Positions 1-18,923 of a DNA stretch of 64,000 bases are shown one piece after another. Position 1 is the first letter of the stretch. Every line of letters starts with the position of its first letter. The notes under the pieces are model-generated. The model made no database searches, had not been told where the DNA came from, and worked only from the letters and a program-made list of their open reading frames with translations. The stretch is from positions 1,440,001 to 1,504,000 of the forward strand of contig CAXXHB010000003.1 of assembly GCA_963664815.2 (NCBI GenBank). The letters run 5' to 3'. The translations under genes and the position numbers were made by a program. The DNA is from Spirochaetota bacterium (lineage in GTDB: Bacteria > Spirochaetota > UBA4802 > UBA5550).

Positions 1-1434
1 AAGGGAAGTCCTACTCTTACAGAAGTAGCGGCTGAAGTAGGCCATACAAAAGTTGCATTAAATCTTGTCTGGACTCTTATCGCTGCATTTCTTGTAATGT
101 TTATGCAGGCGGGATTCGCCATCGTTGAAAGCGGCCTGACAAGGGCAAAAAATGTGGCGCATACTATGTCGATGAACTTTATGATTTATCCGCTTGGAAT
201 GCTCGGCTTTTATCTGTGCGGGTTTGCAATTATGTTCGGTGGTGTAGGCGCGCTTGGTACTCTCGGTGGTTATGACGGGTTATCATCCGAGTTTGTGATT
301 CACCTTTTCGGGAAGGAATTCGGACTTTTCGGTACAAAGGGTTTTATGCTTACAGGTGTATATGATGTGGCTATTTTCGGGCTGTTTATTTTCCAGATGG
401 TTTTTATGGATACTACAGCAACTATCCCTACGGGTTCAATGGCTGAGCGATGGAAATTTTCATCATTTTTCATATATGGAATTTTTGTAGGAACCATAAT
501 ATATCCTATATATGGTAACTGGGTATGGGGAGGTGGATGGCTGGCATCACTTGGGAAGAATTTCGCACTTGGGCATGGACATGTCGACTTCGCCGGTTCA
601 TCAGTTGTCCATATGACTGGTGGTGTACTTGCACTTGTCGGTGCAAAAATACTGGGACCCAGAATAGGGAAGTATAATGAAGACGGATCTCCCAATGCTA
701 TACCTGGCCATAATATACCGCTGGCCATTTTGGGAACCTTTATCCTCGCATTCGGATGGTTCGGTTTTAATGCGGGCTCGACACTGGCAGGGACAGATCT
801 TCGTATAAGTGTTGTTGCAGTAAATACAATGCTTGCTTCCGGTGCAGGTGCAATAGTATCAGCACTATGGATGTGGGGAGTAAGGGGGAATAAACCTGAT
901 CCAAGTATGATGTGTAATGGTATGCTCGCAGGCCTTGTTGCAATTACTGCTCCATGTGCTTTTGTTGGTTCAGGTGCAGCGGTTATTATAGGGACAATAT
1001 CCGGTATACTGGTTATTGAAGCAGCATTTTTTGTTGAAAGAAAACTAAAAGTAGATGATCCTGTCGGCGCAGTTGCTGTCCATGGTGTTAATGGAGCATG
1101 GGGATGCCTTGCACTCGGAATTTTTGCTGATGGTTCTTATGGCGACGGATGGAACGGTGTTTCAGGAACAGTTAAAGGTCTGTTATATGGAGATACGTCA
1201 CAGTTTTTTGCCCAGTCCATAGGTGTAATAACTAATATAATTTATGTTGCGGTTATTGGTTATCTGGTATTCAAACTGGTAGACTTAACAATAGGTAACA
1301 GGGTACCGGCGTCTTATGAATTAGACGGGCTTGATATCCCGGAGATGGGAGTTATTGGATATTCAGGTGTTAAACTGGATAAATATTCAGAAACGCCAAT
1401 ATCGCGAAAAAGTTCAACTGCCGGTTTACTATAG
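1..1434 (+). CDS. amtB: Ammonium transporter (Amt family), 5'-truncated by the window edge
   Basis: Frame open from base 1 (…NLVWTLIAAFLVMFMQAGF); Amt motifs FMQAGFA, DFAGSSVVH, GWFGFNAGS, DDPVGAVAVHG; followed by a PII gene. Confidence 0.96.
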   Translation, partial: KGSPTLTEVAAEVGHTKVALNLVWTLIAAFLVMFMQAGFAIVESGLTRAKNVAHTMSMNFMIYPLGMLGFYLCGFAIMFGGVGALGTLGGYDGLSSEFVIHLFGKEFGLFGTKGFMLTGVYDVAIFGLFIFQMVFMDTTATIPTGSMAERWKFSSFFIYGIFVGTIIYPIYGNWVWGGGWLASLGKNFALGHGHVDFAGSSVVHMTGGVLALVGAKILGPRIGKYNEDGSPNAIPGHNIPLAILGTFILAFGWFGFNAGSTLAGTDLRISVVAVNTMLASGAGAIVSALWMWGVRGNKPDPSMMCNGMLAGLVAITAPCAFVGSGAAVIIGTISGILVIEAAFFVERKLKVDDPVGAVAVHGVNGAWGCLALGIFADGSYGDGWNGVSGTVKGLLYGDTSQFFAQSIGVITNIIYVAVIGYLVFKLVDLTIGNRVPASYELDGLDIPEMGVIGYSGVKLDKYSETPISRKSSTAGLL

Positions 1435-1449
1435 GATAGAGGTGACAAG

Positions 1450-1788
1450 ATGAAAAAAATTGAAGCAATTATAAGACCTGAAAAACTCGATGCAGTTCTT
1501 GATGAACTTGAAAATGTAGGTTATTCGGGATTGATGATCACCGAAATTAAGGGTCATGGAAAGCAAAAGGGAGTTGTGCAGCAGTGGCGTGGAGAAAGTT
1601 ATAAAGTAAAACTGATCTACAAGGTTAAAATTGAAATAATCGCAAAAGACAATGAAGTTGCGAATATAAAGGATACAATTATTAAAGCAGCAAAAACAGG
1701 TGAGATGGGAGACGGCAAGATTTTTATTTATTCAATTGAGGAAGCTGTTAAAATCAGGACAGGTGAAACAGGAGACAATACTCTCTGA
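1450..1788 (+). CDS. glnK: PII nitrogen regulatory protein (GlnK/GlnB)
   Basis: 112 aa; MKKIEAIIRP, GHGKQKG T-loop, TGEMGDGKIF, KIRTGE; adjacent to amtB. Confidence 0.93.
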   Translation: MKKIEAIIRPEKLDAVLDELENVGYSGLMITEIKGHGKQKGVVQQWRGESYKVKLIYKVKIEIIAKDNEVANIKDTIIKAAKTGEMGDGKIFIYSIEEAVKIRTGETGDNTL

Positions 1789-1796
1789 CGAAATTA

Positions 1797-1841
1797 AAAA
1801 AAGGTAATGGGGGTTCATTTATGAATCCCCATTACCTTTTT
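1797..1841 (+). terminator. Intrinsic terminator after amtB-glnK
   Basis: aaaaaggtaatggggg…ccccattaccttttt long stem with flanking A and T tracts. Confidence 0.85.
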
Positions 1842-2021
1842 ATTGATCAAACTCATTTTTTTCAGTTAATACACCCCGTTAAATTACATTTTTGTTAAAT
1901 TGTCTTATTGTTATATGTTCTCCGGGAAAATTATTTGTTTAAAATGTATGGATTAATATTATGTCTATTAATCAGGAGTAACCGCTATATTTAAAATTGC
2001 GGTGAGATTTAGGAATATAAA

Positions 2022-3554
2022 ATGGATCTGATAAACGACAGACAGAGTGGTTTGCTGGAAAAAATTGGAAGAATTTTTATCGAGGATAACGGCGATATTA
2101 AAATACTTATGTCCAATGTGTTTAAACTCATTGTAACCTATTACAATATTGAACGCGGAATGATAAGCATATATCACAAGGAGGAGGGTGAGATATGTGT
2201 TGATATATATCATGGATACACTGAGGAAGAGGTTGCAAGGGGGGTATACAGACCGGGAGAGGGAATAATCGGTACTGTTATTAAAACCGGAAATCCTTAT
2301 ATTGTAATGGATATAATGAATGAACCGAAGTTTCTTAACAGGACAGGTGCTGACAGAAATACAACAGCTAACAAGATTTCATTTATTTGTGTCCCTATTA
2401 AACTGAATTCAGCGGTTATTGGTACAATTTCTGTTGATATTATTAATAATTTCGGAAGAGATCTCGCCGAAGAATACCATGCCCTTACTACTGTATCTAT
2501 TATGATTGCACAGGCGGTTAACGGCAGAATTGAATCAGTTTTAAGAGAGAAAATGCTTAAAGATGAGAATGAACTTCTCCGTAAAAAAATATCGATCAAT
2601 AGTGTCCAGGGGAAACTGTTGGGAACCTCCAGTGAGATGAAAGAAGTATATGAAAAAATCATTATGGTATCGGGGACTGACACAACTGTGCTCATTACGG
2701 GTGAGAGCGGGACAGGGAAGGAGCTTATTGCTGATGCCATACAAAGAAATAGTAAGCGATACGGTGGTCCGTTTGTAAAAGTAAATGTTGCATCATTGCC
2801 GAAGAATCTTATTGAGACTGAACTTTTCGGTTATGAAAAGGGGGCATTTACAGGTGCTGATAAGATGAAAAAGGGGAGATTTGAGCTGGCCCATGGGGGG
2901 ACGATTTTCCTTGATGAGATAGGTGACCTGGATATTTCTTTACAGGTTCATCTTTTAAGGGTTTTACAGGAAAAAAGTATCGATAGAGTGGGGGGAAATG
3001 CGCCGGTTCCAGTTGACGTAAGGGTTATTGCCGCTACTAACCAGAACCTTGAAGAAAAGATTAAAAATAATGAGTTCAGGGAGGATCTCTATTACAGGCT
3101 CAATGTTTTTCCAATACAATCACCTAAATTGCGGGACAGAAGATCTGATATTGTTCTGCTGGCGGATCACTTTCTTGAAATTTATAATTCAAGAGCGGAA
3201 AAAAAGATAAGCAGGATAAGTACGGATACAATTGATCTTCTTGTCGCGTATCACTGGCCGGGGAACGTAAGAGAGCTGGAGAATTGTATCGAACGGGCAG
3301 TAATTCTATGCAATGAGGATGTTATAAGAAATTATCATCTTCCTCCATCTCTTCAGATATTTAACGATAAAAACGGATCAGGGACTCTTGAAGAGAGGAC
3401 TAACATGTTTGAAAAGGAACTTATTATTGATGCCTTAAAAGTATCAAATGGTAATGTTTCAAATGCATCGAAAAAACTCGGAACAACAAAAAGAATACTC
3501 GGTTATAAAATGGATAAGCTTGGAATTGACTATAAAATTTTCAGAAATCACTGA
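2022..3554 (+). CDS. NifA-like sigma-54 enhancer-binding protein (GAF-AAA+-Fis HTH)
   Basis: N-terminal GAF; GESGTGKE Walker A; [13 protein letters not shown]; FLDEIG; [10 protein letters not shown]; C-terminal HTH. Confidence 0.92.
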
Positions 3555-3692
3555 AAAATTCAAGTGATAAAATAAAGCCTTTCATTTGAGCAATCATAAA
3601 TACTGTTTAATATTCAGACTGAATTTCCTCCATATTTAATTAATATTACAAATTACTGGCATTGATATCAAGTGTTAAAATTATATCAGTTT

Positions 3693-3855
3693 ACAAGTAT
3701 GTTAGTTGGTACAAATAAATTGTTACAAATTTGCATTTTGTTTGTTTGAATGATTTTAAATATAACATTATGGTAACATATTTGTAATAATAATCCGCCT
3801 GCAGATTTTCACTCCGATAATTGGTGTTTTGAAAATTCATAAAATACAATTACGT
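3693..3855. promoter_or_regulatory. Cluster of ACA-N4-TGT-like boxes upstream of the mvhD-metF-glt-hdr operon
   Basis: acaagtatgt 3693, acaaatttgc 3725, acatatttgt 3776, acaattacgt 3846; another copy (acatttttgt, 1886) precedes the regulator gene. Confidence 0.4.
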
Positions 3856-3977
3856 AACTGATTTTTAATGCAATGTTAAAATTTAACATAATTGAAATAT
3901 TGAATCATCAGTTTTCATTGATTGTATATCGGGTACGATGTTTTGTTGTAATATAATTTAATTCATGGAGCGGTGTT

Positions 3978-4424
3978 ATGAATATAACAGTCGTTAGGAC
4001 ATTGAAATTGTTTGTTATGTATTGTTCCTCCTCTTTCAGTTCTGAAGAATTGTCTGTCGCGATAAAGATGGATGAAGGTGATGAACTCAGACTGATCGGG
4101 CTTCCATGTTCAGGGAAGGTTGACCTTCTTTACCTTTTAAAAGCATTTGAGAAGGGGGCAGACGGTCTGGTAATACTCACATGCCCGAAAAATGAATGCC
4201 GTCATCTGGAGGGTAATCTCCGGGCGTTGCGAAGGGCTGACAGTGTAAGCTCAATACTCGATGAAACAGGGCTTGGTAATGACAGAATAACCGTATTACA
4301 GTTGAAAGAGGACGGAATTGACGGCATAGTGTCGGAGATTGCTGCGTTTGCAGGCAGCCTGAGGCCGTTAGCCTTTAAAAATTCCGGTTCGTCTGCAGTT
4401 GATGCAACAGCTGTTTCAAATTAG
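3978..4424 (+). CDS. MvhD/FlpD-family [2Fe-2S] subunit (divergent copy)
   Basis: LPCSGKVD…KAFEKGADG…TCPKNECRHLEGN pattern. Confidence 0.85.
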   Translation: MNITVVRTLKLFVMYCSSSFSSEELSVAIKMDEGDELRLIGLPCSGKVDLLYLLKAFEKGADGLVILTCPKNECRHLEGNLRALRRADSVSSILDETGLGNDRITVLQLKEDGIDGIVSEIAAFAGSLRPLAFKNSGSSAVDATAVSN

Positions 4425-4519
4425 GTAGTTTTTAACTGCTTGTGTGTTCTGAATCCGGGTGAGGCCCGGCTGGTATTTGCAAATATTTAGAAGATATAAA
4501 AAATTCTGGTGATTATATT

Positions 4520-5437
4520 ATGAAAAAAGAGAAAAATTTCGCGGATCAGATAAGGGACAAAGATTTTATTGTAACAGCAGAATACCTTCCGCGTGCTGAA
4601 ACAGATCCGGCGAATATTAAAACAATAATTGACTGCCTGAGAGAGGTACCATCAGCGGTAAACGTTTCGGATAACCCGTTTGGTGTGGCAATGTCAAGTT
4701 TTGCAGCATCAATTCACCTTATCAATGCAGGAATTGAACCTGTACTTCAGATCGTCACAAGAGACAGGAACAGGATTGCAATACAGTCTGATATTCTGGG
4801 AGCGTCATCTCTCGGGATAAGAAATATGCTTTGTCTTTCAGGGTATCATCAGGTGCTTACAGACAATCCTGAATCAGCAAATGTTTATGATATTGACTCA
4901 ACACAGCTCCTGGCAATTGTGGAGAATCTGAGGATGAAGGGAGAGCTTCTGAACGGCGCAAAGATAAATGGGCCGTTTAATATGACTACTGGCGCCGTTG
5001 CAAATCCTTTTATGACACCGGTTGAACTTAACGTGCTGAGAGTTTCACAAAAGGCTGAGGCCGGGGCGGTTTTTTTTCAGACCCATCCCGTTTTTGATGT
5101 TGAGAAATTCAGTTTATGGCTTACTGCAGTAAAAGAATCTGGTGTTGATGAAAAAACCGCGATACTTGCCGGTGTGCTCCCGCTTGAAAGCGTTGAAGAG
5201 GCTGAATCTTTAAGACTAAAATATACTGATTTCAATATACCTCAATCCGTTATCGATCGCCTGAAATCGGCGGGAAGCGCAGAAGCACAGAAAAAGGAAG
5301 GAATTGCAGTCTGCACGGAAATTATATCAAAGGTAAAAAATATGAGCGGCCTCAGAGGAATACATCTTCTTACGGGCGGCAAAGAAAAACTGATACCCGA
5401 GATTCTTGGAGTATCCGGTCTGTCCGGAAAAATATAG
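4520..5437 (+). CDS. metF: Methylenetetrahydrofolate reductase-like flavoprotein (MetF family, altered active site)
   Basis: FIVTAEYLP, NVSDNP, EPVLQIVTRDRNRIAIQS, GIHL; SGY and QTH replace the canonical GD and TQ motifs. Confidence 0.82.
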   Translation: MKKEKNFADQIRDKDFIVTAEYLPRAETDPANIKTIIDCLREVPSAVNVSDNPFGVAMSSFAASIHLINAGIEPVLQIVTRDRNRIAIQSDILGASSLGIRNMLCLSGYHQVLTDNPESANVYDIDSTQLLAIVENLRMKGELLNGAKINGPFNMTTGAVANPFMTPVELNVLRVSQKAEAGAVFFQTHPVFDVEKFSLWLTAVKESGVDEKTAILAGVLPLESVEEAESLRLKYTDFNIPQSVIDRLKSAGSAEAQKKEGIAVCTEIISKVKNMSGLRGIHLLTGGKEKLIPEILGVSGLSGKI

Positions 5438-5457
5438 GAATGAACTGGAGATAATTT

Positions 5458-6864
5458 ATGCCGGAAAAATATCACATTGAAACAAATCCGGTCCCTCCGC
5501 GACGTCCGAGGACAGGTAAATACGGTATTATTGACTGGAGAGAAGATTGTGCAAGGTGCCATAATTGTGTAAAGAAAGCATGTGTTTATGACAGGCACAG
5601 GGATGAAATTAAATATATCAGAAATATGGATGATGTTGATGCACTTTTTTTTGACTGCATGGGATGCTTTTCCTGTGTGCAGGAGTGTACTAAAAACCTT
5701 TTAAGGCTTACCATAAACCCTGAGTATGAGAAACTAGGGAATGATTACTGGACTCCACAGATTATCCAGACTACATGGCTGCAGGCTGAAACTGCGAAGA
5801 TCCCTGTTTCGGGTGCAGGATATGGCGGAAGATTTTCCGGTTATGGTTTTGATTCCATGTGGACCGACATGTCAGAGATAGTAAGGCCAACGAGAGACGG
5901 GATTCACGGGCGTGAATATATAAGTACTTCTGCAGACATAGGCAGGAAAACATCATTTCTTGTGATGAAGGATGGAGAACTTTCAACGGATATCCCTCCA
6001 TTAATATCAACTCCAATGCCGCTGATAATTGATATGATGCCTGAAGAATATTCTCTGGAAATTCTGGAACCATTGATGATGGAAACTGCATATAGAACTG
6101 ATCTGACAGCTGTTATTGATTCAGGAAGATGGTCTTTTAAAAATAATTTCAGCGAGAAGTATCTCCCGCATGTAGCATTTTATTTCGCTGCCGGTTCGGA
6201 ACTCCTTCCTGCGGATATTATACGTAAAACAAAAATGGTGGAGATTGAAAATTCCGGCGATATTAAACGCCGGATAATGGAACTCAAAGAGATCAGTGCG
6301 GACATAGTAGTGTGTGTAAGGATTAAATTAGATGAAAACGGCATTAGCCGGGCAGTTGAACTTTCCGAGCAGGGTATTGAAGCACTGCATATTATAGCAG
6401 ATATGAACGGAAAACAGTATGGCACAGGTTCTCCGTTATTTATAAAAGATATGATACGTCAGATTCATAAATCGCTGATTGAAAGCGGCAGACGTGATGA
6501 TATTACAATAATTTCAGGTGGCGGAATAGCCCTTCCGGAACATATGGTTAAGGGAATTATATGCGGAACTGATCTTGTATCAATAGAACTTCCGCTTTTA
6601 ATTGCAATGGAATGCCATCTGTGTGGGGTTTGCACCGGAGAGAAAAAATGTCCCGCGAAAATCAGGGAAGTTGACATTGAGTATGGCGCTGGCCGGATGA
6701 CTAACCTGATTGCAGCGTGGCATGACCAGATGGTTGAACTTATGGGAGCCATGGGCATCAGAGATGCAAGACGTCTACGCGGTGATGTGGGGCGTGCCAT
6801 GTTTTTTGAACAGATGGAGGAGGAAAGCTTTGGGAGAATTTTTGGTAAACGGAAGCATGCTTGA
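5458..6864 (+). CDS. Fe-S/glutamate synthase FMN-domain-like protein (degenerate paralog)
   Basis: Two CxxCxxC Fe-S motifs, GFDSMWTDMSEIVRP, ISGGGI, MECHLCGVC…CP, LMGAMG…LRG; MSFG/GEGG/QGAKPG not found. Confidence 0.78.
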   Translation: MPEKYHIETNPVPPRRPRTGKYGIIDWREDCARCHNCVKKACVYDRHRDEIKYIRNMDDVDALFFDCMGCFSCVQECTKNLLRLTINPEYEKLGNDYWTPQIIQTTWLQAETAKIPVSGAGYGGRFSGYGFDSMWTDMSEIVRPTRDGIHGREYISTSADIGRKTSFLVMKDGELSTDIPPLISTPMPLIIDMMPEEYSLEILEPLMMETAYRTDLTAVIDSGRWSFKNNFSEKYLPHVAFYFAAGSELLPADIIRKTKMVEIENSGDIKRRIMELKEISADIVVCVRIKLDENGISRAVELSEQGIEALHIIADMNGKQYGTGSPLFIKDMIRQIHKSLIESGRRDDITIISGGGIALPEHMVKGIICGTDLVSIELPLLIAMECHLCGVCTGEKKCPAKIREVDIEYGAGRMTNLIAAWHDQMVELMGAMGIRDARRLRGDVGRAMFFEQMEEESFGRIFGKRKHA

Positions 6865-8419
6865 GAAAATAATTCCTGAAAACACGCTTAAAACCAGGAC
6901 TATACAGCATACAGAAGAGCGGGCAATAAATCCAGCTCCTCCAAGATACAGGAATGAGATGGGAAAATATATAACCCTGAGAGATGAAACAAAATGCATA
7001 TTATGCGGAAAATGTGCCGCTGTATGCCCGCAGGGAGTTCATGTATTGAAACCGGGGTACAAGTATTTTGCTGAGCCTAAAAATCACCTCTGTTTTGGTT
7101 TTAAGTGCGAAGAGAAGGGGTGTTACTGTGTTGCCGCCTGCCCGAACGGCGCATTGAAAGTCGAAGTAAATCCCATGATGAAAGTTCTGGGAGACTACAG
7201 GTGGACAGCAGAGATGATACTTGCTACATGGAAAATGGCTGAAAACGGTAAAATTCCATCTGATGATTATGGGTTGGAATATGAAACCGGAAATTCCGGT
7301 GGAGGTTTTGACCGGATAAGATTTAAATTTCCGGAAAAACCGCCGATAGCACTCAGTGCAGAAGATATTGATACTTCACTTGAACTGAACCGGAGAAATG
7401 ACGGCAGGCCAAAAATAAAAATTGATGTTCCGTGGTATGGCGGAGGTATGTCCTTTGGTTCTGTCAGCAACACTACGCAGCTTTCAAAAGCACGAGCGGC
7501 AGTTGCATGGAACACTTTTACCTGTACCGGTGAAGGCGGGTATATGGAGAGGATGAGGCCATACGATGACCATGTTATAACTCAGGTCGCAACGGGTTTA
7601 TTCGGAATCAGGGAAGAGACTATTCAAAGAGTTCCTATAGTGGAGTTTAAATATGCGCAGGGTGCCAAACCTGGACTCGGCGGTCACCTCCTGGGGGATA
7701 AAAACACCCCGGCAGTTGCTATGATGCGGGGAACGGTCGTAGGTATTCCACTTTTCTCTCCATTTCCGTTTCACAGCGTATATTCCATAGAAGATCACAT
7801 GAAACAGATTGACTGGATTAAGCATGTAAACAGGCGGGCGCTGATTTCAAGCAAGGTATCAACTCCTAATGATGTGGATATGGTTGCTGTAGGGAGTTAT
7901 TCTGCAGGCACCCATATTATACATCTTGACGGAGGGTACGGCGGAACAGGAGCAGCTCCGGAAATTGCCAAAAAGAATATAGCAATGCCGATAGAATATG
8001 CTATTCCGAAAGTTCATAATTTTCTTGTAGCGGAAGGAGCAAGGGAGGGAGTAACACTGATCGCAAGCGGAGGTATCCGTAATCCCTATGATATGGCCAA
8101 GGCAATTGCACTTGGAGCAGATGGAGTTGTTATAGGTACAATGGAGATGGTGGCGCTCGGGTGCGTAAGATGCGGAAGATGTTCCGCAGGCCGTGGTTGT
8201 CCAAGAAGCATAGCTACTACCGATAAAAAACTTGCACCCAAGATAGAACTCGAATGGGGAGCCCAGAGGCTTATTAATACTTACAATGCATGGAGAGACG
8301 AACTTATAAGAATTCTTCAGAGGCTTGGACTGGGAAGCGTAGCTGCCCTGAGGGGCAGATCAGATCTTCTCATGCATCTTGATTATACCAATGACGTGGA
8401 GTATAACCATGAAAAATGA
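6857..8419 (+). CDS. Glutamate synthase FMN-binding subunit with N-terminal ferredoxin domain (split, archaeal-type GltB2)
   Basis: CILCGKCAAVCP; GGMSFGS, TGEGG, QVATGLFG, AQGAKPGLGGHL, DGGYGGTGAAP, ASGGIR, CVRCGRC…CP; start set at ATG 6857, overlapping the upstream stop. Confidence 0.9.
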   Translation: MLEKIIPENTLKTRTIQHTEERAINPAPPRYRNEMGKYITLRDETKCILCGKCAAVCPQGVHVLKPGYKYFAEPKNHLCFGFKCEEKGCYCVAACPNGALKVEVNPMMKVLGDYRWTAEMILATWKMAENGKIPSDDYGLEYETGNSGGGFDRIRFKFPEKPPIALSAEDIDTSLELNRRNDGRPKIKIDVPWYGGGMSFGSVSNTTQLSKARAAVAWNTFTCTGEGGYMERMRPYDDHVITQVATGLFGIREETIQRVPIVEFKYAQGAKPGLGGHLLGDKNTPAVAMMRGTVVGIPLFSPFPFHSVYSIEDHMKQIDWIKHVNRRALISSKVSTPNDVDMVAVGSYSAGTHIIHLDGGYGGTGAAPEIAKKNIAMPIEYAIPKVHNFLVAEGAREGVTLIASGGIRNPYDMAKAIALGADGVVIGTMEMVALGCVRCGRCSAGRGCPRSIATTDKKLAPKIELEWGAQRLINTYNAWRDELIRILQRLGLGSVAALRGRSDLLMHLDYTNDVEYNHEK

Positions 8420-11093: not shown

Positions 11094-11118
11094 AAGAAAT
11101 GTCTAATGGAGTAGCTAT

Positions 11119-11682
11119 ATGACAATAATTATAAAGAGTGAAAATAAAGGGAAGAGTTTTTTCGAAAAGATAAAGACCGGGTCGGGTGTGGACATCAGTC
11201 TTTGCCTCCAGTGCAGGAGATGTTCAAATGGCTGTCCTGCAGCTGCTTTTACAGGAGCATCCCCTTCGGAAATAATAAGAAAGCTTCAGCTTGGTATGAG
11301 TAAGGAAATTCTTGATGATGATTTTATATGGGTCTGCGCTTCATGCGAAACCTGTTTTGCAAGATGCCCGATGAAGATCAATATGGCGGCAGTGATCGAT
11401 GAACTTAGAATTTCCGCCGGTGATTTAAAGTCAAAGACCCCGGCGGGGAATATGCCTATGATGAACAGGTTTCTTCTCGGTACTATGAGATCATTCGGAA
11501 GAACATATGATCTCGGAGCCATGATTCTTTACAAGGCCGGGACTTTCTCGTATTTCAGGGATGCGGGAAAATTTCCTATGATCCTTAAAAAGGGTAAAAT
11601 AGCGCTTTTTCCTTCATCAGCTGGTGATAAAAAAAGTGTAAAGAATATATTTAAAAATATTGAAAAGATGAGGAAACAGTAA
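11119..11682 (+). CDS. hdrC: Heterodisulfide reductase subunit C-like
   Basis: CLQCRRCSNGCP and WVCASCETCFARCP; precedes hdrB. Confidence 0.88.
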   Translation: MTIIIKSENKGKSFFEKIKTGSGVDISLCLQCRRCSNGCPAAAFTGASPSEIIRKLQLGMSKEILDDDFIWVCASCETCFARCPMKINMAAVIDELRISAGDLKSKTPAGNMPMMNRFLLGTMRSFGRTYDLGAMILYKAGTFSYFRDAGKFPMILKKGKIALFPSSAGDKKSVKNIFKNIEKMRKQ

Positions 11683-11683
11683 G

Positions 11684-12556
11684 ATGAAATACGCGTACTA
11701 TCCGGGATGTTCTGCCGAATCGACGGCACGCGATCAGTATACATCAACAATGGCTGTTGCGCGCTCTCTGGGGATTGAGCTTGTTGAACCGGAGGGATGG
11801 ACTTGTTGCGGTTCAACGCCTGCCCACCAGGTAAATCACGATCTGGCTGTTTCATTATCAGTGGCAAATCTGCAGAAGGTGCAGGATCTTGGACTCGATA
11901 TGGTGGTAAGCTGCGCATCATGTTACAGCAGGATGAAAGCTGCAAATCATGCAGTTGCTTCAGATCCGGCAGTAAGAAAACGGATTTCAGAGATTACCGG
12001 AAAAGACTATGACGGATCTGTCCGTGTGAGGCATTTTATTGAAATATTACTTGAAGACATCGGTTTGATGCAGTTTAAAAGAATGCTTACAGGCTCTCTT
12101 GACGGAATGAAGGTTGCTTCATATTATGGATGCCTGCTTGTGCGTCCCAATGAGATAACGGGTTTTGACGATCCGGAAAATCCGGTTTATATGGATAAGA
12201 TTATAAATGCCATGGGTGGAGATAGCATTGACTGGCCGCATAAAACAGAGTGCTGTGGCGCGTCACTTACCCTTACAAGACCCGGGATAGTTTTAAAACT
12301 GTCTGATTCAATTATTGCAATGGCGGAGGGATACGGGGCGGAATGCATTTCTGTTGCATGCCCGATGTGCCAGATAAACCTTGATATGAGACAGGGAGAT
12401 ATAAAAAAAGAAACAGGAAAAGACTACAGGATGCCTGTAATGTATATAACACAGCTTATCGGGCTATGTCTTGGAATTCCGGGGAATGACCTTGGAATCG
12501 GCAGGCTGATAAATTCGCCCGAAAAGATTATGACAGGAGTAGTTAATAATGCATAA
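11684..12556 (+). CDS. hdrB: Heterodisulfide reductase subunit B-like
   Basis: YYPGC, WTCCG, CASC, YYGC, ECCG, ACPMC (two CCG domains). Confidence 0.92.
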   Translation: MKYAYYPGCSAESTARDQYTSTMAVARSLGIELVEPEGWTCCGSTPAHQVNHDLAVSLSVANLQKVQDLGLDMVVSCASCYSRMKAANHAVASDPAVRKRISEITGKDYDGSVRVRHFIEILLEDIGLMQFKRMLTGSLDGMKVASYYGCLLVRPNEITGFDDPENPVYMDKIINAMGGDSIDWPHKTECCGASLTLTRPGIVLKLSDSIIAMAEGYGAECISVACPMCQINLDMRQGDIKKETGKDYRMPVMYITQLIGLCLGIPGNDLGIGRLINSPEKIMTGVVNNA

Positions 12557-15500
12557 GAGTAATAATAAAAAAACCGGAGCGGTAATTGTTCAGGGGGGCG
12601 GTATTGCAGGAGTGCAGGCATCTCTTGATCTTGCGAACTCGGGATTTAAAGTACATCTGGTTGAAAGCAGTTCAGCGATTGGCGGAATGATGGCTCATCT
12701 TGACAAAACATTCCCTACCGGTGATTGCGCAACATGTATTGTTTCTCCAAAACTGGTTGAATGTTCAAGAAACCTTAACATAGAAATACATACACTCTCC
12801 GAGCTTGAATCTCTTGAAGGGGAGGCTGGAAACTTCAAGGCAGGGATAAGAAAATCACCAAGGTATATAGACGAAAAAATCTGCAATGACTGCGGTGATT
12901 GCACAAAGGCCTGCCCCGTTGAAATCAGCGACAGGTTTAACCGGGGTCTCGGGAAAAGAAAGGCAATTCAGAAATATAACGCGCAGGCTATACCTAACAA
13001 ACCGGCAATAATGAAGCTGGGACACGCGCCGTGTAAGGTTACATGTCCTGCAAATATAAATGTTCAGGGTTATATTCAGCTTATAAAAAAGGGTGAATAT
13101 ATAAAAGCGGTGAATATGATAAGGGAAAGAAATCCCCTGTCAGCTGTATGCGGGCGTGTCTGTCCTGCGCCATGCGAGAATGCATGCACAAGATCAAAAT
13201 TTGATTCCGCTGTTGCAATAAGGCAGCTCAAGCGTTTTGCCTCTGATCAGGAGATGATGCTGGTGAAATCAGGAAAAATACAGCTTCCTGAAGAGAGAAG
13301 ACCCTCATCAAATGCGGAAAAAGTTGCTGTTATAGGTGCAGGTCCGGCAGGGCTCACATGTGCTGCCGATCTTGCAGACAGGGGGTTTGCTGTTACGGTT
13401 TTTGAAACAGGAGAGCGTGCAGGCGGGATGCTTATATGGGGCATTCCCGAATACCGGCTCCCCAGGAATATCCTTGATTATGAAGTTGAACTTATAAGGC
13501 GGAAAGGTGTTGAATTTGTTTTCAACTATCGTGCAGGAAGGGATGCGTCGATCAGTGAATTGAAAAGTAAATATGACGCTCTCTTTATAAGCGCCGGTGC
13601 GCATGGAGGGAGACGTTTAGGAGTAGAAGGTGAAGACCTTACAGGAGTTGATTCAGGAGTTGATTTTTTAAGAGAGAACGGCAAAGAAGGGGGCAGACCC
13701 CATGTAGGCGAAAATGTTGTAGTAATAGGGGGCGGTAACGTAGCGGTGGATGTAGCCCGTACGGCACTCCGTCTGGGCGCAAAAAATGTACAACTTGTTG
13801 CTCTTGAAAAATATGGGGAGATGCCGGCATATGAGGATGAAATAAAGGCTTCTGTTGAAGAAGGTATTGTCATAAAAAATGGATGGGGACCGGAGAAAAT
13901 TACAGGTAAAGGATCGGTTTCCGGTATTGAACTTAAAGAATGCGTCAGGGTCTTTGATGATAAAGGGAAATTCAGCCCGATATATAATAATGAAAATCTG
14001 ATAACATTAAAAGCTGACCAGATTATAGTTGCCATAGGGCAGATGGTTGAAAAGGATCTTCTTGAAAACAGCTGTGTAGATACGGAATTCGGATGCATAT
14101 CAGCTGACCCGGTTACACTTGAAACTACAGAAAAGGGCGTTTTTGCAGGCGGAGACAATGTATCCGGGCCTGCAAGTGTCATCGAAGCCGTTGCTGCAGG
14201 AAAAAGGGCTGCTGAATCTATAGAAAGGTTTTTAAACGGAAAAGATATGTTTACTGACCGTTTCGAATCAACGGTTAAACCGGTTCCGGAAAATATGCTT
14301 CCTTCTGCATCTGATGTAATTAAAAAAGAACGCTCTGTGGCAGATGAACTTCCGGTAAGTGAGAGAATACTGAATTTCAAGGAAGTGGAATCGGCATTTA
14401 CAGCTGAGCAGGCTGCGGCAGAGGCGGAGAGATGCCTTAACTGTGCCCTCTGTTCGGAGTGCAATGAATGTGTTTCCGCCTGTGAAAAACAGGCTGTACG
14501 GCACAATATGAAGGATGAGTACATTGAGCTTGATGCGGGATCGGTAATAATGACTGCCGGTTTTAAGGAGTTCGACGCATCAGAGAAAGGTGAGTTCGGA
14601 TATGGCAGATATAAAAATGTCGTTACGAATGTTCAGTTTGAAAGAATGCTCTCTGCGGCAGGACCATCCGGAGGGCATGTACTGAGACTTTCCGATGGGG
14701 AAGAGGCAAAGCGCATCGCCTTTATACAGTGTGTCGGTTCAAGGGATTCCAAATGCGGCAACGAATACTGCTCATCAATATGCTGCATGGCAACAACCAA
14801 GCAGGCGCTTGTTGCAGATGAACATATAGAAGGGATGAATGCGTCTATATTCTATATGGATATACGTGCTTTTGGAAAGGACTTCGACCGTTATTATGAA
14901 AGGGCAAGAAGTAAAGAAAATATAAAGTATATAAAAGGGATCCCTTCACGTACAGTGCAGGTTCCCGGATCTATGGATATACGTCTTAAATATATGGATG
15001 AGAATTTCAATTATATTGAAAGTGATTTTGACCTTGTGGTGCTTGCGGTTGGGATGGAGCCTCAGGATAAAATTGAAGAAAAGATGTCCGGAATAGGAGT
15101 TAAGCTAAACGAGTATGGATTCGCAGGGAGAAGCCGTCTCTATCCTCTTCAGACATCACGCGACGGGGTCTTCATCGCAGGGGCATTTAATGAACCGAAA
15201 GATATCCCGGAGACTGTTACGCAGGCAAGTGCGGCTGCGTCAATGGCTATGGAGATACTTAACCAGGCAAGGAATACACTCACGGCAGGAAAGAAGTACC
15301 CGGCAGAACATGATACTACGGATGAAAAACCGAGAATCGGTGTTTTTGTATGTCACTGCGGGATCAATATAGCTTCAACAGTTGATGTGGAAAAAGTGAC
15401 GGAAGCAGTAGCGGGTGAACCGGGTGTAATAGTGGCATCTCATACAATGTATACATGTTCCGATTCCAGCTTAACAAATATTAAAAAATGTATTATAGAA

Positions 15501-17036
15501 AACAGGCTCAACAGGGTTGTTGTGGCCTCATGTACACCAAGAACGCATGAAGACCTTTTCAGGGATACTCTCCGTGAGGCCGGACTTAACCAGTACCTTT
15601 TTGAACTGGCCAATATACGGGACCAATGTTCATGGGTTCACAGCGGAGAACCTGAACCGGCAACTGAAAAGGCTGTTCAGCTTGTAAAGATGTCAATAGC
15701 ACGTTCGAGAATGCTGAAACCACTGACAGGCGAATCATTACTGATAAACCAGAACGGACTTGTAATAGGGGGTGGACTGAGCGGGATGACTGCAGCTCTG
15801 TCGCTTGCGGAGCAGGGATTTAAAGTTACGCTTGTTGAGAAGTCAGAGGTACTGGGGGGAAATATGCTGAATATTTACAGTACTCTTGAGAATGAAGATA
15901 TAGGCGGTTTTCTGGGTGAAATGGTTTCAAAAGTTGGAAATCATAAAAACATTCAGCTTTACCTGAACAGCGAGGTGGTTAAATTAAATGGCCATATCGG
16001 AAAATTTACTGTTACCATAAGTCAGAAGGGAGTAACTAACGGTAAAGGTATTGATATCAACTGCGGTGCGATTGTTGTCGCCACTGGGGGTAAACCTGCA
16101 GAAGTAAAGGATTTCTCTTATGGAAAATCAGAGAATATATTAACACAGCTAGATCTGGAGAAAATGATTCATGAAAACAGTTTTTCATCTTTAAATTCTT
16201 CTGGCAGCAGCAAAAATATTGTAATGATTCAATGTGCGGGCTCACGCAACAATGAAAGGGAATACTGCAGCAGGATATGCTGCTCCATGGCAGTGAAAAA
16301 TGCTCTGAAAATAAAAAAAGGGAATCCTGATGTGAATGTTTATATTTTGTATCGTGATATAAGGACATATGGCTTCAGGGAAAAATATTATCTTGAGGCA
16401 AGGAAGTCGGGTGTAGTTTTTATAAGGTATGATGAAAAGAATCCTCCGGTAGTGTCGGAAGATGAAAAACTTTTTGTAACGCTTAAAAGCCCCGATATTC
16501 GCGATGTCGTTATGATTGAAGCTGATAATCTGATACTGAGTACCGGGATAGATGCACATGCTGAGAACAGGGCGGTTTCTGACATGCTTAAGCTTCAACT
16601 CAACCAGGATGGTTTTTTTCTTGAGGCACACGTTAAACTGCGACCTGTAGACTTTGCGACAGAGGGGATATATCTCTGCGGTCTTGCTCATTCACCGAAA
16701 ATGATTGATGAGAACATATCGCAGGCAAAGGCAGCAGCATCACGCGCTGCGACTATTCTTTCAAAGAACAGCCTTGAAGTTGGTGCACAGGTGTCGGAGG
16801 TAGACCAGAATAAATGTATATCTTGTATGACCTGTGTTCATGCATGCCCGTATGGAGCTCCGTCGGCAAATATTGACGGTAAGGCTGAAATAGCCGCAGC
16901 AAAATGCATGGGTTGCGGCATATGTGCATCGGAATGTCCCGCAAGGGCTATACAGCTTAACCATTTTGAGACAAAACAGTTCAACATTATGCTAGAGGAT
17001 CTGATAGAAAACTATATAGCAGTACATCGTAATTAA
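12549..17036 (+). CDS. hdrA: Large HdrA-family FAD/Fe-S protein with inserted GltD/SudA-like NAD(P)H oxidoreductase module (HdrL-like)
   Basis: GGGIAG…LDKTFPTGDC; insert PCKVTCP…CGRVCPAPCENAC…GAGPAG…GGGNVA; IQCVGSR…CSSICC; second HdrA repeat GVFVCHCG…QCAGSR…CSRICC; C-terminal 2x[4Fe-4S]. Confidence 0.9.
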   Translation: MHKSNNKKTGAVIVQGGGIAGVQASLDLANSGFKVHLVESSSAIGGMMAHLDKTFPTGDCATCIVSPKLVECSRNLNIEIHTLSELESLEGEAGNFKAGIRKSPRYIDEKICNDCGDCTKACPVEISDRFNRGLGKRKAIQKYNAQAIPNKPAIMKLGHAPCKVTCPANINVQGYIQLIKKGEYIKAVNMIRERNPLSAVCGRVCPAPCENACTRSKFDSAVAIRQLKRFASDQEMMLVKSGKIQLPEERRPSSNAEKVAVIGAGPAGLTCAADLADRGFAVTVFETGERAGGMLIWGIPEYRLPRNILDYEVELIRRKGVEFVFNYRAGRDASISELKSKYDALFISAGAHGGRRLGVEGEDLTGVDSGVDFLRENGKEGGRPHVGENVVVIGGGNVAVDVARTALRLGAKNVQLVALEKYGEMPAYEDEIKASVEEGIVIKNGWGPEKITGKGSVSGIELKECVRVFDDKGKFSPIYNNENLITLKADQIIVAIGQMVEKDLLENSCVDTEFGCISADPVTLETTEKGVFAGGDNVSGPASVIEAVAAGKRAAESIERFLNGKDMFTDRFESTVKPVPENMLPSASDVIKKERSVADELPVSERILNFKEVESAFTAEQAAAEAERCLNCALCSECNECVSACEKQAVRHNMKDEYIELDAGSVIMTAGFKEFDASEKGEFGYGRYKNVVTNVQFERMLSAAGPSGGHVLRLSDGEEAKRIAFIQCVGSRDSKCGNEYCSSICCMATTKQALVADEHIEGMNASIFYMDIRAFGKDFDRYYERARSKENIKYIKGIPSRTVQVPGSMDIRLKYMDENFNYIESDFDLVVLAVGMEPQDKIEEKMSGIGVKLNEYGFAGRSRLYPLQTSRDGVFIAGAFNEPKDIPETVTQASAAASMAMEILNQARNTLTAGKKYPAEHDTTDEKPRIGVFVCHCGINIASTVDVEKVTEAVAGEPGVIVASHTMYTCSDSSLTNIKKCIIENRLNRVVVASCTPRTHEDLFRDTLREAGLNQYLFELANIRDQCSWVHSGEPEPATEKAVQLVKMSIARSRMLKPLTGESLLINQNGLVIGGGLSGMTAALSLAEQGFKVTLVEKSEVLGGNMLNIYSTLENEDIGGFLGEMVSKVGNHKNIQLYLNSEVVKLNGHIGKFTVTISQKGVTNGKGIDINCGAIVVATGGKPAEVKDFSYGKSENILTQLDLEKMIHENSFSSLNSSGSSKNIVMIQCAGSRNNEREYCSRICCSMAVKNALKIKKGNPDVNVYILYRDIRTYGFREKYYLEARKSGVVFIRYDEKNPPVVSEDEKLFVTLKSPDIRDVVMIEADNLILSTGIDAHAENRAVSDMLKLQLNQDGFFLEAHVKLRPVDFATEGIYLCGLAHSPKMIDENISQAKAAASRAATILSKNSLEVGAQVSEVDQNKCISCMTCVHACPYGAPSANIDGKAEIAAAKCMGCGICASECPARAIQLNHFETKQFNIMLEDLIENYIAVHRN

Positions 17037-17050
17037 ACGAGAGGAATATA

Positions 17051-17500
17051 ATGAGTGATAAAAATTTTGAACCTCTGATTATCGCTTTCTGCTGCCAGTA
17101 CTGTTCGTATTCAGCGGCAGACCTTGCGGGTTCCATGAGGCTTCAGTATCCGCCTAATGTAAGAATTGTACGAACTCCCTGTACCGGCAGGCTTGAAGTT
17201 AATTTTTTTATGAAGGCGTTTGAAAAAGGTGCTGATGGAATACTTGTAGCCGGGTGCCTTGAAGGAGGCTGCCATTTTACTGAGGGTAATTTTCTTGCGA
17301 AAGGCAGAGTGGGATATACCCGGACAATACTTCATGAAAGCGGACTTGAAGCTGAACGTATAAAAATGATAAATGTATCGGCGGCAATGGCACGGCCGTT
17401 TGTAGACCATCTGAACGATTTGATTGAAACAGTAAAAAAACTCGGGCCTAATCCTCTTTCGGGTAAGGTCAACAGTGTTAAAGAGGAGATAGAAGTATGA
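17051..17500 (+). CDS. mvhD: MvhD [2Fe-2S] subunit
   Basis: AFCCQYCSYSAADLAG, PCTGR, GADG, GCLEGGCHF. Confidence 0.92.
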   Translation: MSDKNFEPLIIAFCCQYCSYSAADLAGSMRLQYPPNVRIVRTPCTGRLEVNFFMKAFEKGADGILVAGCLEGGCHFTEGNFLAKGRVGYTRTILHESGLEAERIKMINVSAAMARPFVDHLNDLIETVKKLGPNPLSGKVNSVKEEIEV

Positions 17501-18162
17501 TAGTAGCGCAGAGAAAAAGTATTCCCGAACTCACAGAGATACTTGAGGGGCATAAAAAAATACTTGTACTGGGATGCGGTACATGCGTCACGGTTTGCCT
17601 TGCCGGTGGAGAACGTGAAGTGAGTATTATCTCTTCGGCTCTTAGAATTTCTTCCAGTCTGAAAGGGCTCGGTTTCGAGGTAGAGGAGCTTACAATAGAG
17701 AGACAGTGTGACAATATTTTTATAGAGAAGGCAGCGGAAGCGGTTTCCAGAAATGACGTTGTTCTGTCACTGGGATGCGGCGCGGGCGTACAGGCAATAG
17801 CGGAAAGGTTTGATAAGCCTGTATATGCCGGACTTGACACCGAATTTATCGGAATACTCGAGGAGAGGGCAACCTGGACTGAAAAATGTATATCATGCGG
17901 GAAATGCGTTCTGCATATGTATGGAGGAATATGCCCTGTCACAAGATGTGCAAAGCATATGTTGAACGGGCCCTGCAGCGGTTCCAGGGAAGACAGGTGC
18001 GAGGTGAGACCAGACCGCCCATGTGCATGGCAACTTATTTATCAGAGACTTAAAAAAATTGGTGAACTTGATAAACTTAAACAGATAAAAGCGCCAAAAA
18101 ACTGGAATTACAGCCTTCATGGCGGTTCCAGGGTTATTATTCGCGAGGATCACAGAATATAA
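17497..18162 (+). CDS. metV: MetV (MTHFR Fe-S/Zn partner subunit)
   Basis: GCGTCVTVC, RQC, GCGAGVQ, CISCGKC…GGICPVTRCAKHMLNGPCSG…CE…CAW. Confidence 0.88.
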   Translation: MIVAQRKSIPELTEILEGHKKILVLGCGTCVTVCLAGGEREVSIISSALRISSSLKGLGFEVEELTIERQCDNIFIEKAAEAVSRNDVVLSLGCGAGVQAIAERFDKPVYAGLDTEFIGILEERATWTEKCISCGKCVLHMYGGICPVTRCAKHMLNGPCSGSREDRCEVRPDRPCAWQLIYQRLKKIGELDKLKQIKAPKNWNYSLHGGSRVIIREDHRI

Positions 18163-18479: not shown

Positions 18480-18923
18480 ATGAAACACTCGGAAGTATAT
18501 TTGATAATAATACTCTCATTACTGATGATTAACTCTTCATGCTGCAGTAAACCAAAAGAGGAAATAAGTGGAGGCAGCTGCAGCTATGTAAAATTTGAAG
18601 GTTTTGCTGTAATAAAATCAATTACAGCCGCACCTGCATCAGAATATAACTGCCCTGTTAAACCCATGCAGATTATATTTGAATTCACACCTTTAAATAT
18701 TTCAGACAGACAGAAGTATAAATTTAAGGAATTTAAAGATACTGCGGTCAAAATGAGGATCAATGATGGCGCCAATCCACCACTTGCATGGATCAAAAAG
18801 AACGGGATTGAGCCCGGAAAAAAATTCAGATGTTTCAGGGAAGAGATTACAAAAGGTACATGCACTCCTGTATGTTTCAAATTCACAGATCTGAATTTAT
18901 TTCCGGAAACCGGATGTAAATAA
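18480..18923 (+). CDS. Hypothetical Cys-rich lipoprotein
   Basis: RBS ggag, hydrophobic signal ending NSSCC, several further Cys. Confidence 0.65.
   Translation: MKHSEVYLIIILSLLMINSSCCSKPKEEISGGSCSYVKFEGFAVIKSITAAPASEYNCPVKPMQIIFEFTPLNISDRQKYKFKEFKDTAVKMRINDGANPPLAWIKKNGIEPGKKFRCFREEITKGTCTPVCFKFTDLNLFPETGCK

Follow-up and report, generated by a model that had tools for sequence, protein, structure and literature searches.

Organization of the gene cluster

The DNA analysed here is a 64,000 nt stretch of the genome of a Spirochaetota bacterium (contig CAXXHB010000003.1, positions 1,440,001 to 1,504,000), referred to below as the window, and our subject is a run of ten same-strand genes at 3978-18162 in which genes for what looks like a split glutamate synthase (GOGAT) stand among hdr, mvhD and met genes. 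In order, these are mvhD1, a metF-like gene, gltBa, gltBb, gatGXG, hdrC, hdrB, hdrA-large, mvhD2 and metV. Gene calls, made from open reading frames (ORFs) together with Pfam and NCBIfam profile matches, place all of them on the + strand, along with the amtB, glnB and sigma54 activator genes that precede the cluster. A preliminary description of the same DNA had noted ten co-oriented genes behind amtB-PII and a NifA-like activator, overlapping or spaced within 25 nt from metF onwards, and both observations are borne out by the ORFs, the profile matches and the measured spacing. The activator and mvhD1 are separated by 423 nt and mvhD1 and metF by 95 nt, and the gaps from metF through metV are, in order, 20, -8, -11, 25, 1, -8, 14 and -4 nt (range -11 to 25 nt). 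The G+C content drops from about 0.43-0.45 to 0.35 past metV.

The first gene, mvhD1 (3978-4424; PF02662 (FlpD), 82 bits), encodes a [2Fe-2S] adaptor of the MvhD/FlpD type, with four Cys invariant among 21 orthologues, and stands at the head of all forms of the cluster. The 95 nt that separate it from metF hold a GC-rich hairpin, CCGGGTGAGGCCCGG at 4455-4469, with a weak T-tail, which could be an attenuator or processing site.

Conservation and forms of the cluster

Comparison of 41 related genomes, that of the window included, placed the gene for a fused glutamine amidotransferase (GATase)-GXGXG protein in ten of them. Seven of the nine other carriers keep the full ten-gene order, at 59-94% identity per protein, and the two most distant (~54% identity) have the order mvhD-metV-metF-gltBa-gltBb-gatGXG with no hdr genes nearby. 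A survey of public sequence in which each species was represented by a single genome turned up at least 589 stretches that encode a relative; forms were counted in the best 80 loci, and the spread over phyla was read from record titles. The complete ten-gene order is present in 32 of these 80 loci, two more are complete as far as the contig end, and 12 are Hdr-linked but cut or rotated. The order mvhD-metV-metF-glt accounts for ten loci and one cut locus, mvhD-glt-metV-metF for eight, and mvhD-glt without MetVF in the available sequence for six (two of which, L093 and L101, have glt only, with no mvhD match); nine were too short to classify. Glt genes between metF and hdrCBA-mvhD-metV, the arrangement for which the preliminary description had proposed a synteny check, thus recur in the seven relatives and 32 public loci just given.

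Complete loci were found in at least seven phyla (Spirochaetota, Thermodesulfobacteriota, Planctomycetota, Verrucomicrobiota, Chloroflexota, Ignavibacteriota and Bacteroidota), under titles that name Leptospirales, Syntrophaceae/Smithella, Syntrophorhabdus, Sedimentisphaerales/Phycisphaerae/Pirellulales, Verrucomicrobiota, Dehalococcoidia/Chloroflexia, Ignavibacteriae and Bacteroidales; the carriers include metagenome-assembled genomes (MAGs) of many phyla from peat, sediment and groundwater. Because gene order is held across phyla, down to ~50-60% protein identity, the clustering of glt with Hdr/Mvh/Met genes exceeds chance. The constant core comprises MvhD, gltBa, gltBb and gatGXG; MetVF are usual and Hdr is present in slightly more than half of the loci. 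MvhD precedes the glt genes even where both Hdr and MetFV are missing (L079, L081 and L094).

Some loci are arranged differently. L045, from a Desulfosudis oleivorans MAG, and L040 are rotated, running gatGXG-hdrC-hdrB-hdrA-mvhD2-metV and then mvhD1-metF-gltBa. At 4554-7481 of L069, an HdrA-like gene and mvhD come after glt-metV-metF, and the 7.8 kb contig gave no hdrBC match; this may be an intermediate form. Flanking 'families' of 266, ~1000 and ~185 aa were dropped as antisense ORFs of metV, gatGXG and gltBa, respectively, in high-GC loci.

The Glt proteins

The 894 aa product of gatGXG (8409-11093) is a fusion of a class II (Ntn) GATase domain (PF13522), a linker of ~170 residues and a C-terminal GXGXG beta-helix domain (PF01493, 52 bits against a cut-off of 32.5). 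The motifs GGC35GV, HNRGNGKGGG, AHQR(F/Y)PTKG, VHNGDFANY and TDTEV are invariant among ten orthologues, as are Cys35, R235, N261-G262 and D286, which align with the motifs AHTRWATHG, VHNG and TDTEV of GlmS, where the corresponding Arg, Asn-Gly and Asp are glutamine-site residues. A 34-residue leader precedes the nucleophile Cys35, and comparable N-terminal propeptides are known from GltB and PurF.

The neighbouring gltBb (6857-8419; Fer4 and Glu_synthase PF01645, 288 bits, 1.3e-85) encodes a catalytic-type GltB FMN domain with a 2x[4Fe-4S] domain at its N-terminus. It aligns to residues 857-1171 of the Azospirillum brasilense GltS alpha subunit (2.4e-44), its best NCBIfam match is the glutamate synthase large subunit, and the motifs GEGG, QVA(S/T)G, AQGAKPG, GGTGA and CP..IAT are kept among 58 orthologues; it departs from GltB at one motif, GGQLPG, which here reads GGHLLG (Gln to His). 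The product of gltBa (5458-6864; Fer4 and only the C-terminal half of Glu_synthase, 2.5e-13) is a full-length paralogue of gltBb, with ~25% identity over residues 6-442. It has an N-terminal 2x[4Fe-4S] domain (two ferredoxin-type Cys4 motifs) and a third Cys4 motif, all with invariant Cys, and it keeps the FMN-phosphate glycines (GGI/GxD), lacks the AQGAKPG substrate loop and carries an invariant block of its own, VSGAGY..FSG.GFD.MWTDMSEIVRPTRDGIHGREY (VSGAGY...MSEIVRPTRDGIHGREY). No protein of the cluster reaches the cut-off for the PF04898 central domain of GltB (the FMN part of gltBb scores 21.7 against 22.8), and gltBa may stand in for that domain. A PDB search gave no solved complex and no fused GATase-GXGXG chain, the best matches, to GlmS and FwdC, being 22 bits.

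Further evidence on how these proteins work together comes from single-chain metagenome proteins of 2526-3152 aa (P0025, P0041, P0073 and P0120), each of which combines a GlcD-type FAD domain, Fer4, gltBa-like, gltBb-like, GATase and GXGXG parts; residues 644-1096 of P0073 are the gltBa-like part (7e-34), and a related partial protein from a Brocadiia MAG carries the name 'alpha-hydroxy-acid oxidizing protein'. These giant fusions argue that the three Glt genes make one enzyme, which takes exchangeable donor dehydrogenases at the place where metF sits here, and the GlcD fusions may themselves be 2-hydroxyacid-driven glutamate synthases. Judged by its motifs, the Glt part of the cluster looks like a working glutamine-dependent glutamate synthase.

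The MetF-like protein

The second gene of the cluster (4520-5437; PF02219, 106 bits) encodes a MetF-like flavoprotein with the fold of a MetVF-type methylenetetrahydrofolate reductase (MTHFR), and metV (17497-18162; PF12225, 122 bits) lies at the far end of the run. The MetF-like protein was aligned with the two other MetFs of its own genome and with 53 cluster MetFs from ORFs recovered from 89 loci. Folate catalysis in Escherichia coli MetF depends on Glu28, Asp120 and Gln183. The equivalent of Glu28 is kept in the window protein and in 51 of the 53, the equivalent of Asp120 (in the motif LRGD or LSGDH) is Tyr109 in the window protein (CLSGYH), and that of Gln183 is His189; the genome's two other MetFs keep Glu, Asp and Gln.

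These substitutions follow the form of the cluster. At the Asp120 position the 36 Hdr-linked loci have Tyr in 30, Phe in two, His in one, Leu in one and Asp in two, so that Asp is absent from 34 of the 36, and all 14 Hdr-less loci with at least 3 kb of downstream sequence have Asp; three cut loci have Tyr in one and Asp in two. The Gln183 position is occupied by His (18), Gln (12), Ser (3), Asn (1) or Asp (2) in the Hdr-linked loci and by Gln in 14 of 14 Hdr-less loci. The pattern suggests a MetF without folate chemistry wherever Hdr and its NAD(P)H domain are present: the 'MetFV' half of the Hdr-linked form is probably no longer a methylenetetrahydrofolate (methylene-THF) reductase, and the MetF of the Hdr-less form is probably catalytic.

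HdrA-large and the Hdr/Mvh module

The Hdr genes comprise hdrC (11119-11682; Fer4 families, with TIGR03290 at 68 bits, under its cut-off), hdrB (11684-12556; two CCG domains in two stretches of PF02754, with TIGR03288 at 179 bits, under its cut-off) and hdrA-large (12549-17036), which is followed by mvhD2 (17051-17500; PF02662, 157 bits). The 1495 aa hdrA-large protein, delimited by Pfam and NCBIfam matches and by mapping on Methanothermococcus thermolithotrophicus HdrA (5odc_A), consists of a TrxR-like half split by a GltD/NfnA-like insert and a second HdrA half with N- and C-terminal ferredoxin domains. In the first half, residues 11-155 correspond to HdrA 145-289 and, beyond the insert, 633-851 to HdrA 291-510; in the second, 926-1099 correspond to HdrA 2-175 and 1344-1485 to HdrA 505-649. 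The insert (residues ~139-665) is an FAD-NAD(P)H-2x[4Fe-4S] domain that matches NF009410 at 541 bits and the NfnA and GltD chains of the PDB, including 6s6s_G and 2vdc_G at ~1e-53. The preliminary statement that there is no stand-alone gltD is therefore true inside the cluster but misleading, in that a GltD-like domain resides in hdrA-large and a canonical gltD is encoded elsewhere in the genome.

A protein of this kind has been described from Moorella thermoacetica, whose HdrA of ~1490 aa (162.8 kDa) contains an additional TrxR-like domain, into which a GltD FAD/NAD(P)H domain is inserted (PMC9430772; this and the other papers cited by PMC number are cited for the part of the text that was available). 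Since the Moorella HdrA also holds a GltD-like domain, the presence or absence of that domain says nothing special about GOGAT. The signature of flavin-based bifurcation is a Glu/Lys pair at the flavin, E356 and K409 in the M. thermolithotrophicus HdrA (PMC9430772), and equivalents are found in both halves of hdrA-large (FERM...CCMATTK in half 1 and LEKM...CCSMAVK in half 2).

Nitrogen-related genes and the upstream region

Three genes that precede the cluster point to nitrogen metabolism: amtB, for an ammonium transporter (97-1434; PF00909, 352 bits), whose 5' end may reach the window start; glnB/glnK, for a PII protein (1450-1788; PF00543, 96 bits); and a gene for an enhancer-binding protein of NifA-like GAF-AAA+(sigma54)-HTH_8 architecture (2022-3554; PF01590, PF00158 at 238 bits and PF02954). 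Of the best 80 loci, 12 have amtB and/or glnB, and five a sigma54 activator, no more than 10 kb away. One related genome (G001) has amtB, glnB and the activator as here and another (G007) the activator alone, the activator orthologues being 85% and 79% identical and in the same position. Flanking genes were annotated where their family occurred in at least two loci, and among the 89 loci the recurrent neighbours include GlnA (6), CarA (6), CarB (6), canonical GltB (5, and a cut one in L021), PurF-like proteins (4) and HisF (4), with GdhA (L022) and NrpR (L021) found once each. All five glutamine synthetase (GS)-like neighbours that were tested exceed the GlnA equivalog cut-off (TIGR00653, 543-549 bits against 429); that they are true GlnA favours GS-GOGAT and disfavours the N-methylglutamate-synthase-like methylamine pathway that the preliminary description had offered as its alternative.

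The 423 nt region upstream of mvhD1 (3555-3977, + strand) was examined by motif scans and by an alignment of four same-genus genomes (3700-3960 of the window together with L015, L016 and L017), which revealed conserved palindromes of the TACAA-N-TTGTA type (TACAAATTTG.. and TACAA(A/T)ATTGTA) and an AT-rich block, AAAATTTAACATAA..GAAA.AT.G..CA.TTT..ATTGAT. The palindromes and the block are candidate operator sites of some regulator. The only relaxed sigma54 candidate, TGGTAACATATTTGTA at 3771, was rejected, as it has GT for GC and a GG that G001 and G003 do not share; the site is more likely part of a palindromic operator. Five sequencing runs from two studies cover 3900-13800, with the library kind unrecorded, and none is on record as RNA.

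Two further neighbours recur among relatives. A protein of 421-469 aa, with a KaiC/RecA-like N-terminus without an obvious P-loop and with HTH_3 and Cupin_2 domains, is encoded beside the cluster in four of them (L019 1-667, L020 1-433, L021 1862-3127 and L022 13417-14826), and adjoins NrpR in L021. In same-genus genomes, the genes immediately preceding the cluster or its activator are one like homocitrate/isopropylmalate synthase (HMGL-like, with HCS_D2) and one for a GNAT protein (L016 15854-17881, L017 1-2049 and L044).

Genome background and other features of the window

The genome that carries the window (5.2 Mb, 96% complete) has elsewhere a canonical operon for GltB (1524 aa) and GltD (472 aa) and two further MTHFRs, one a canonical MetF (323 bits) and the other encoded by a metV-metF pair at a separate place. 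Acetyl-CoA synthase CdhC/AcsB (PF03598) was not found in this 96%-complete genome, nor was nifH, the best PF00142 match being 44 bits with an in-frame stop; by these searches the host is neither a Wood-Ljungdahl organism nor a diazotroph. Without an acetyl-CoA synthase, the cluster is not a Wood-Ljungdahl MTHFR borrowed in place, and a link between the form of the cluster and that pathway was discarded, CdhC being absent here but present in five of the five relatives tested (three Hdr-linked and two Hdr-less). Ferredoxin supply for nitrogenase was likewise discarded for this organism, in view of the missing nifH.

Past metV, the low-GC stretch contains an ORF of 147 aa (18480-18923, + strand) with a lipoprotein-like N-terminus and no Pfam family. 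Elsewhere in the window are genes for a 705 aa protein that begins with a caspase (Peptidase_C14) domain and otherwise matches no Pfam family (19592-21709, - strand) and for a 723 aa protein in which a PTS EIIC membrane domain is joined to an EAL (c-di-GMP phosphodiesterase) domain (29167-31338, + strand).

Discussion

With confidence only a little better than even, we read the ten genes as specifying one multi-subunit alternative GOGAT that would be fed by NAD(P)H through HdrABC-MvhD-MetV(F'), where MetF' denotes the MetF-like protein of the window, and that is probably nitrogen-regulated. The preliminary description had likewise cast the Hdr/Met module as the electron supply of a glutamate synthase; this is still the best reading, given the conserved unit, the GOGAT motifs and the nitrogen context, and it has to be amended for the missing acetyl-CoA synthase, a MetF without its Asp and the presence of a canonical gltBD.

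In the mechanism that we propose for such a GOGAT, gatGXG would be cleaved before Cys35, hydrolyse glutamine and hand NH3 to gltBb, and gltBa would serve as an Fe-S (possibly flavin) wire and docking platform in place of the central domain of GltB and the clusters of GltD. Electrons from NAD(P)H would enter at the GltD-like domain of the Moorella-type HdrA and pass from the HdrA flavins and clusters to MvhD2, MetV-MetF', MvhD1, gltBa and finally the FMN of gltBb. Glutamate synthesis would thereby replace methylene-THF as the terminal acceptor, since MetF' has lost the folate-catalytic Asp. The Hdr-less complex would consist of MetF-MetV-MvhD-gltBa-gltBb-gatGXG, with its MetF as a catalytic donor or acceptor site, and the Hdr-linked form would be this complex with the addition of the HdrCBA-MvhD module, which docks on MetVF in Moorella. 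Such docking of HdrABC-MvhD on MetVF is indicated by pull-downs from Moorella and Sporomusa (PMC9430772).

One contact in this scheme was examined by complex prediction, a multimer check that the preliminary description had proposed. The pair gltBa and MvhD1, run with three controls, gave a score of 0.49 against 0.00 for the best control, with a contact agreement of at least 71% and a partner pLDDT of at least 74. The mark that was applied is reached by 58 of 80 solved and two of 110 mismatched pairs, and at scores of 0.60 or less by seven of the 80 and by both of the mismatches, so that the contact between gltBa and MvhD1 is weakly supported.

Several points weigh against a GOGAT wired in this way. 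The sequence of electron carriers has been deduced from the arrangement of the genes and by analogy with the Moorella and Sporomusa pull-downs (PMC9430772). The two Hdr-linked loci that keep Asp in MetF form a divergent clade (40-43% identity), and the pattern of Asp-to-Tyr replacement may reflect one ancestral event, because the related genomes are not independent. The 34-residue leader of gatGXG would have to be removed to expose the Cys nucleophile, and the Gln-to-His change in the GGQLPG motif of gltBb makes another 2-oxo acid possible as substrate. With gltBD already in the genome, the need for a second GOGAT is not evident. As to regulation, no + strand match to a sigma54 -24/-12 promoter with two or fewer mismatches was found upstream of mvhD1 or metF, so that control by the adjacent activator is at best putative; the activator itself adjoins the cluster only in the same genus and a few other loci. 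In half 1 of hdrA-large, the GltD insert interrupts the inserted ferredoxin domain (HdrA residues 247-304), and no inserted-ferredoxin Cys motif was seen in half 2 (residues 1100-1350), which argues against ferredoxin as the bifurcation partner there (cf. PMC12054007).

This last point bears on a more ambitious version of the proposal. By our own estimate a GOGAT reaction with NAD(P)H as the electron donor is strongly exergonic, and two E/K flavins and HdrBC could, speculatively, couple it to a second, uphill reduction. A bifurcating glutamate synthase, in which the drop from NAD(P)H to glutamine plus 2-oxoglutarate (2-OG) drives the uphill reduction of a low-potential carrier or of an HdrB substrate, would plausibly fit the E/K signature in both HdrA halves, and we think it possible but rather doubtful.

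A bifunctional complex, using both methylene- or methyl-THF at MetF and glutamine plus 2-OG at gltBb and balanced by HdrABC through bifurcation or confurcation, corresponds to the 'bifurcation partner' of the preliminary description, and we regard it as unlikely, if somewhat less so than the explanations that follow. In one variant glutamate synthesis draws its electrons from the oxidation of methyl-THF (with a potential of about -200 mV), and in another a single donor serves to reduce both substrates. MetF and MetV are found together with the Glt genes in three different gene orders, the Hdr-less MetF keeps all three catalytic residues (14 of 14) where no other donor module is encoded, the fusion of GlcD-type donors to the same Glt core elsewhere fits a dehydrogenase that feeds GOGAT, and even MetF' keeps the Glu28 equivalent. 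Set against this are Tyr109 and His189 in MetF' and the loss of Asp in nearly all Hdr-linked loci (34/36), with the proviso that the roles of Asp120 and Gln183 are those known from work on E. coli; moreover, with two other MTHFRs in the genome, one of them with its own MetV, and with no CdhC/AcsB, bulk methyl-THF flux is not expected.

We think it distinctly improbable that the Glt-like trio is instead some other amidotransferase-linked reductive aminase, such as an N-methylglutamate-synthase-like enzyme or one acting on another 2-oxo acid. The histidine in GGHLLG, the weak Pfam scores of the GATase and GXGXG parts and the canonical GOGAT already in the genome would fit such an enzyme, as would the facts that MgsABC has the same set of domains (GATase, GXGXG and FMN) and that AmtB is able to carry methylammonium, but the residues of the Ntn glutamine site are invariant, gltBb keeps the remaining GltB motifs and has a glutamate synthase large subunit as its best NCBIfam match, and neither gmaS nor a sarcosine-oxidase-type gene was present among the annotated recurrent flanking families. 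Least probable of all, and in our view very unlikely, is that a Moorella-type Hdr-MetFV and a split GOGAT are independent systems placed in one operon only so as to be regulated together. Unlinked functions can be grouped in an operon, the support from complex prediction is weak, and neither a sigma54 promoter nor an RNA run turned up; but no donor module comes with the split GOGAT itself, the glt genes are headed by MvhD even in loci that lack Hdr and MetFV, the interleaving persists in at least seven phyla, a catalytic residue of MetF is lost exactly in the Hdr-linked form, and the fusion proteins show a Glt core built for a donor module.

The closest known counterpart of the alternative GOGAT that we favour is the MetFV-HdrABC-MvhD complex of M. 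thermoacetica, an Hdr-type ('type IV') MTHFR (PMC9430772, PMC6085437). As in that complex, hdrC, hdrB, mvhD, metV, metF and a large HdrA of similar size are all present in one cluster, and the HdrA shares the TrxR-like domain interrupted by a GltD domain and the E/K signatures in both halves (PMC9430772). The present cluster differs in having three glt genes and a second mvhD between metF and hdrC, a metF 12 kb from metV, a MetF whose Asp and Gln are replaced by Tyr and His, and a host without acetyl-CoA synthase. In HdrL, or type III HdrA, known from Desulfobacterium autotrophicum (PMC2702500) and from ANME-1 and Bathyarchaeota (PMC12054007), a GltD domain also lies within the inserted-ferredoxin domain of HdrA and an mvhD gene follows, but those proteins are linked to dsr, mvh or other genes, and in the available parts of the two papers none is reported with glt or metF. 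More generally, we found no description of glt genes inside a metFV/hdr cluster in the available full-text literature, supplements aside; loci of this kind could still stand uncommented in the gene tables that supplement PMC6085437 or PMC2702500.

On the glutamate synthase side there are two points of reference. The archaeal-type split enzyme has a separate GATase, an FMN subunit fused to a ferredoxin and a GXGXG protein, and split forms are also present in genomes of the order to which the host belongs (G025-G040). The cluster resembles this type in the distribution of GltB domains over separate polypeptides and in an FMN subunit with an N-terminal 2x[4Fe-4S] domain, and differs from it in the fusion of GATase and GXGXG, in the second, loop-less FMN paralogue gltBa and in its MvhD, MetVF and Hdr partners. 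With A. brasilense GltBD (1ea0, 2vdc and 6s6s) it shares the glutaminase and FMN motifs and the NAD(P)H-FAD-2x[4Fe-4S] module of GltD type, but here that module is inside HdrA rather than in a free beta subunit and the PF04898 central domain is missing. The [3Fe-4S] site of the GltB FMN domain is a Cys3 motif, whereas the FMN-domain cluster motif here is Cys4 (C-x2-C-x2-C-x5-C), and the host has a true gltBD in addition.

Glutamate synthase is the main point of entry of nitrogen into biomass, and the electron donors known to serve it are NAD(P)H (by way of GltD), ferredoxin and, for certain archaea, F420. A widespread GOGAT wired to Hdr, Mvh and MetFV would, if the reading is true, extend this list by another donor system and might be a bifurcating enzyme of a new kind. 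Many genes annotated as the 'bifurcating MetF/Hdr' of the Wood-Ljungdahl pathway, as which co-localized MetF-MetV-MvhD were counted in PMC6085437, would then have to be reassigned. A bifurcating GOGAT would also help to trace the second acceptor used by the Hdr-MetFV complex in Moorella. Extending the same idea, one could take the Hdr-less forms for glutamate synthases that depend on methyl-THF and the fusion forms for ones that depend on 2-hydroxyacids, and both would pass electrons too positive for NAD+ straight to biosynthesis. The finding thus bears on energy budgeting for nitrogen assimilation in uncultured anaerobes, and if the GOGAT should prove to be bifurcating, nitrogen assimilation would recover energy in anaerobes that are starved of it.

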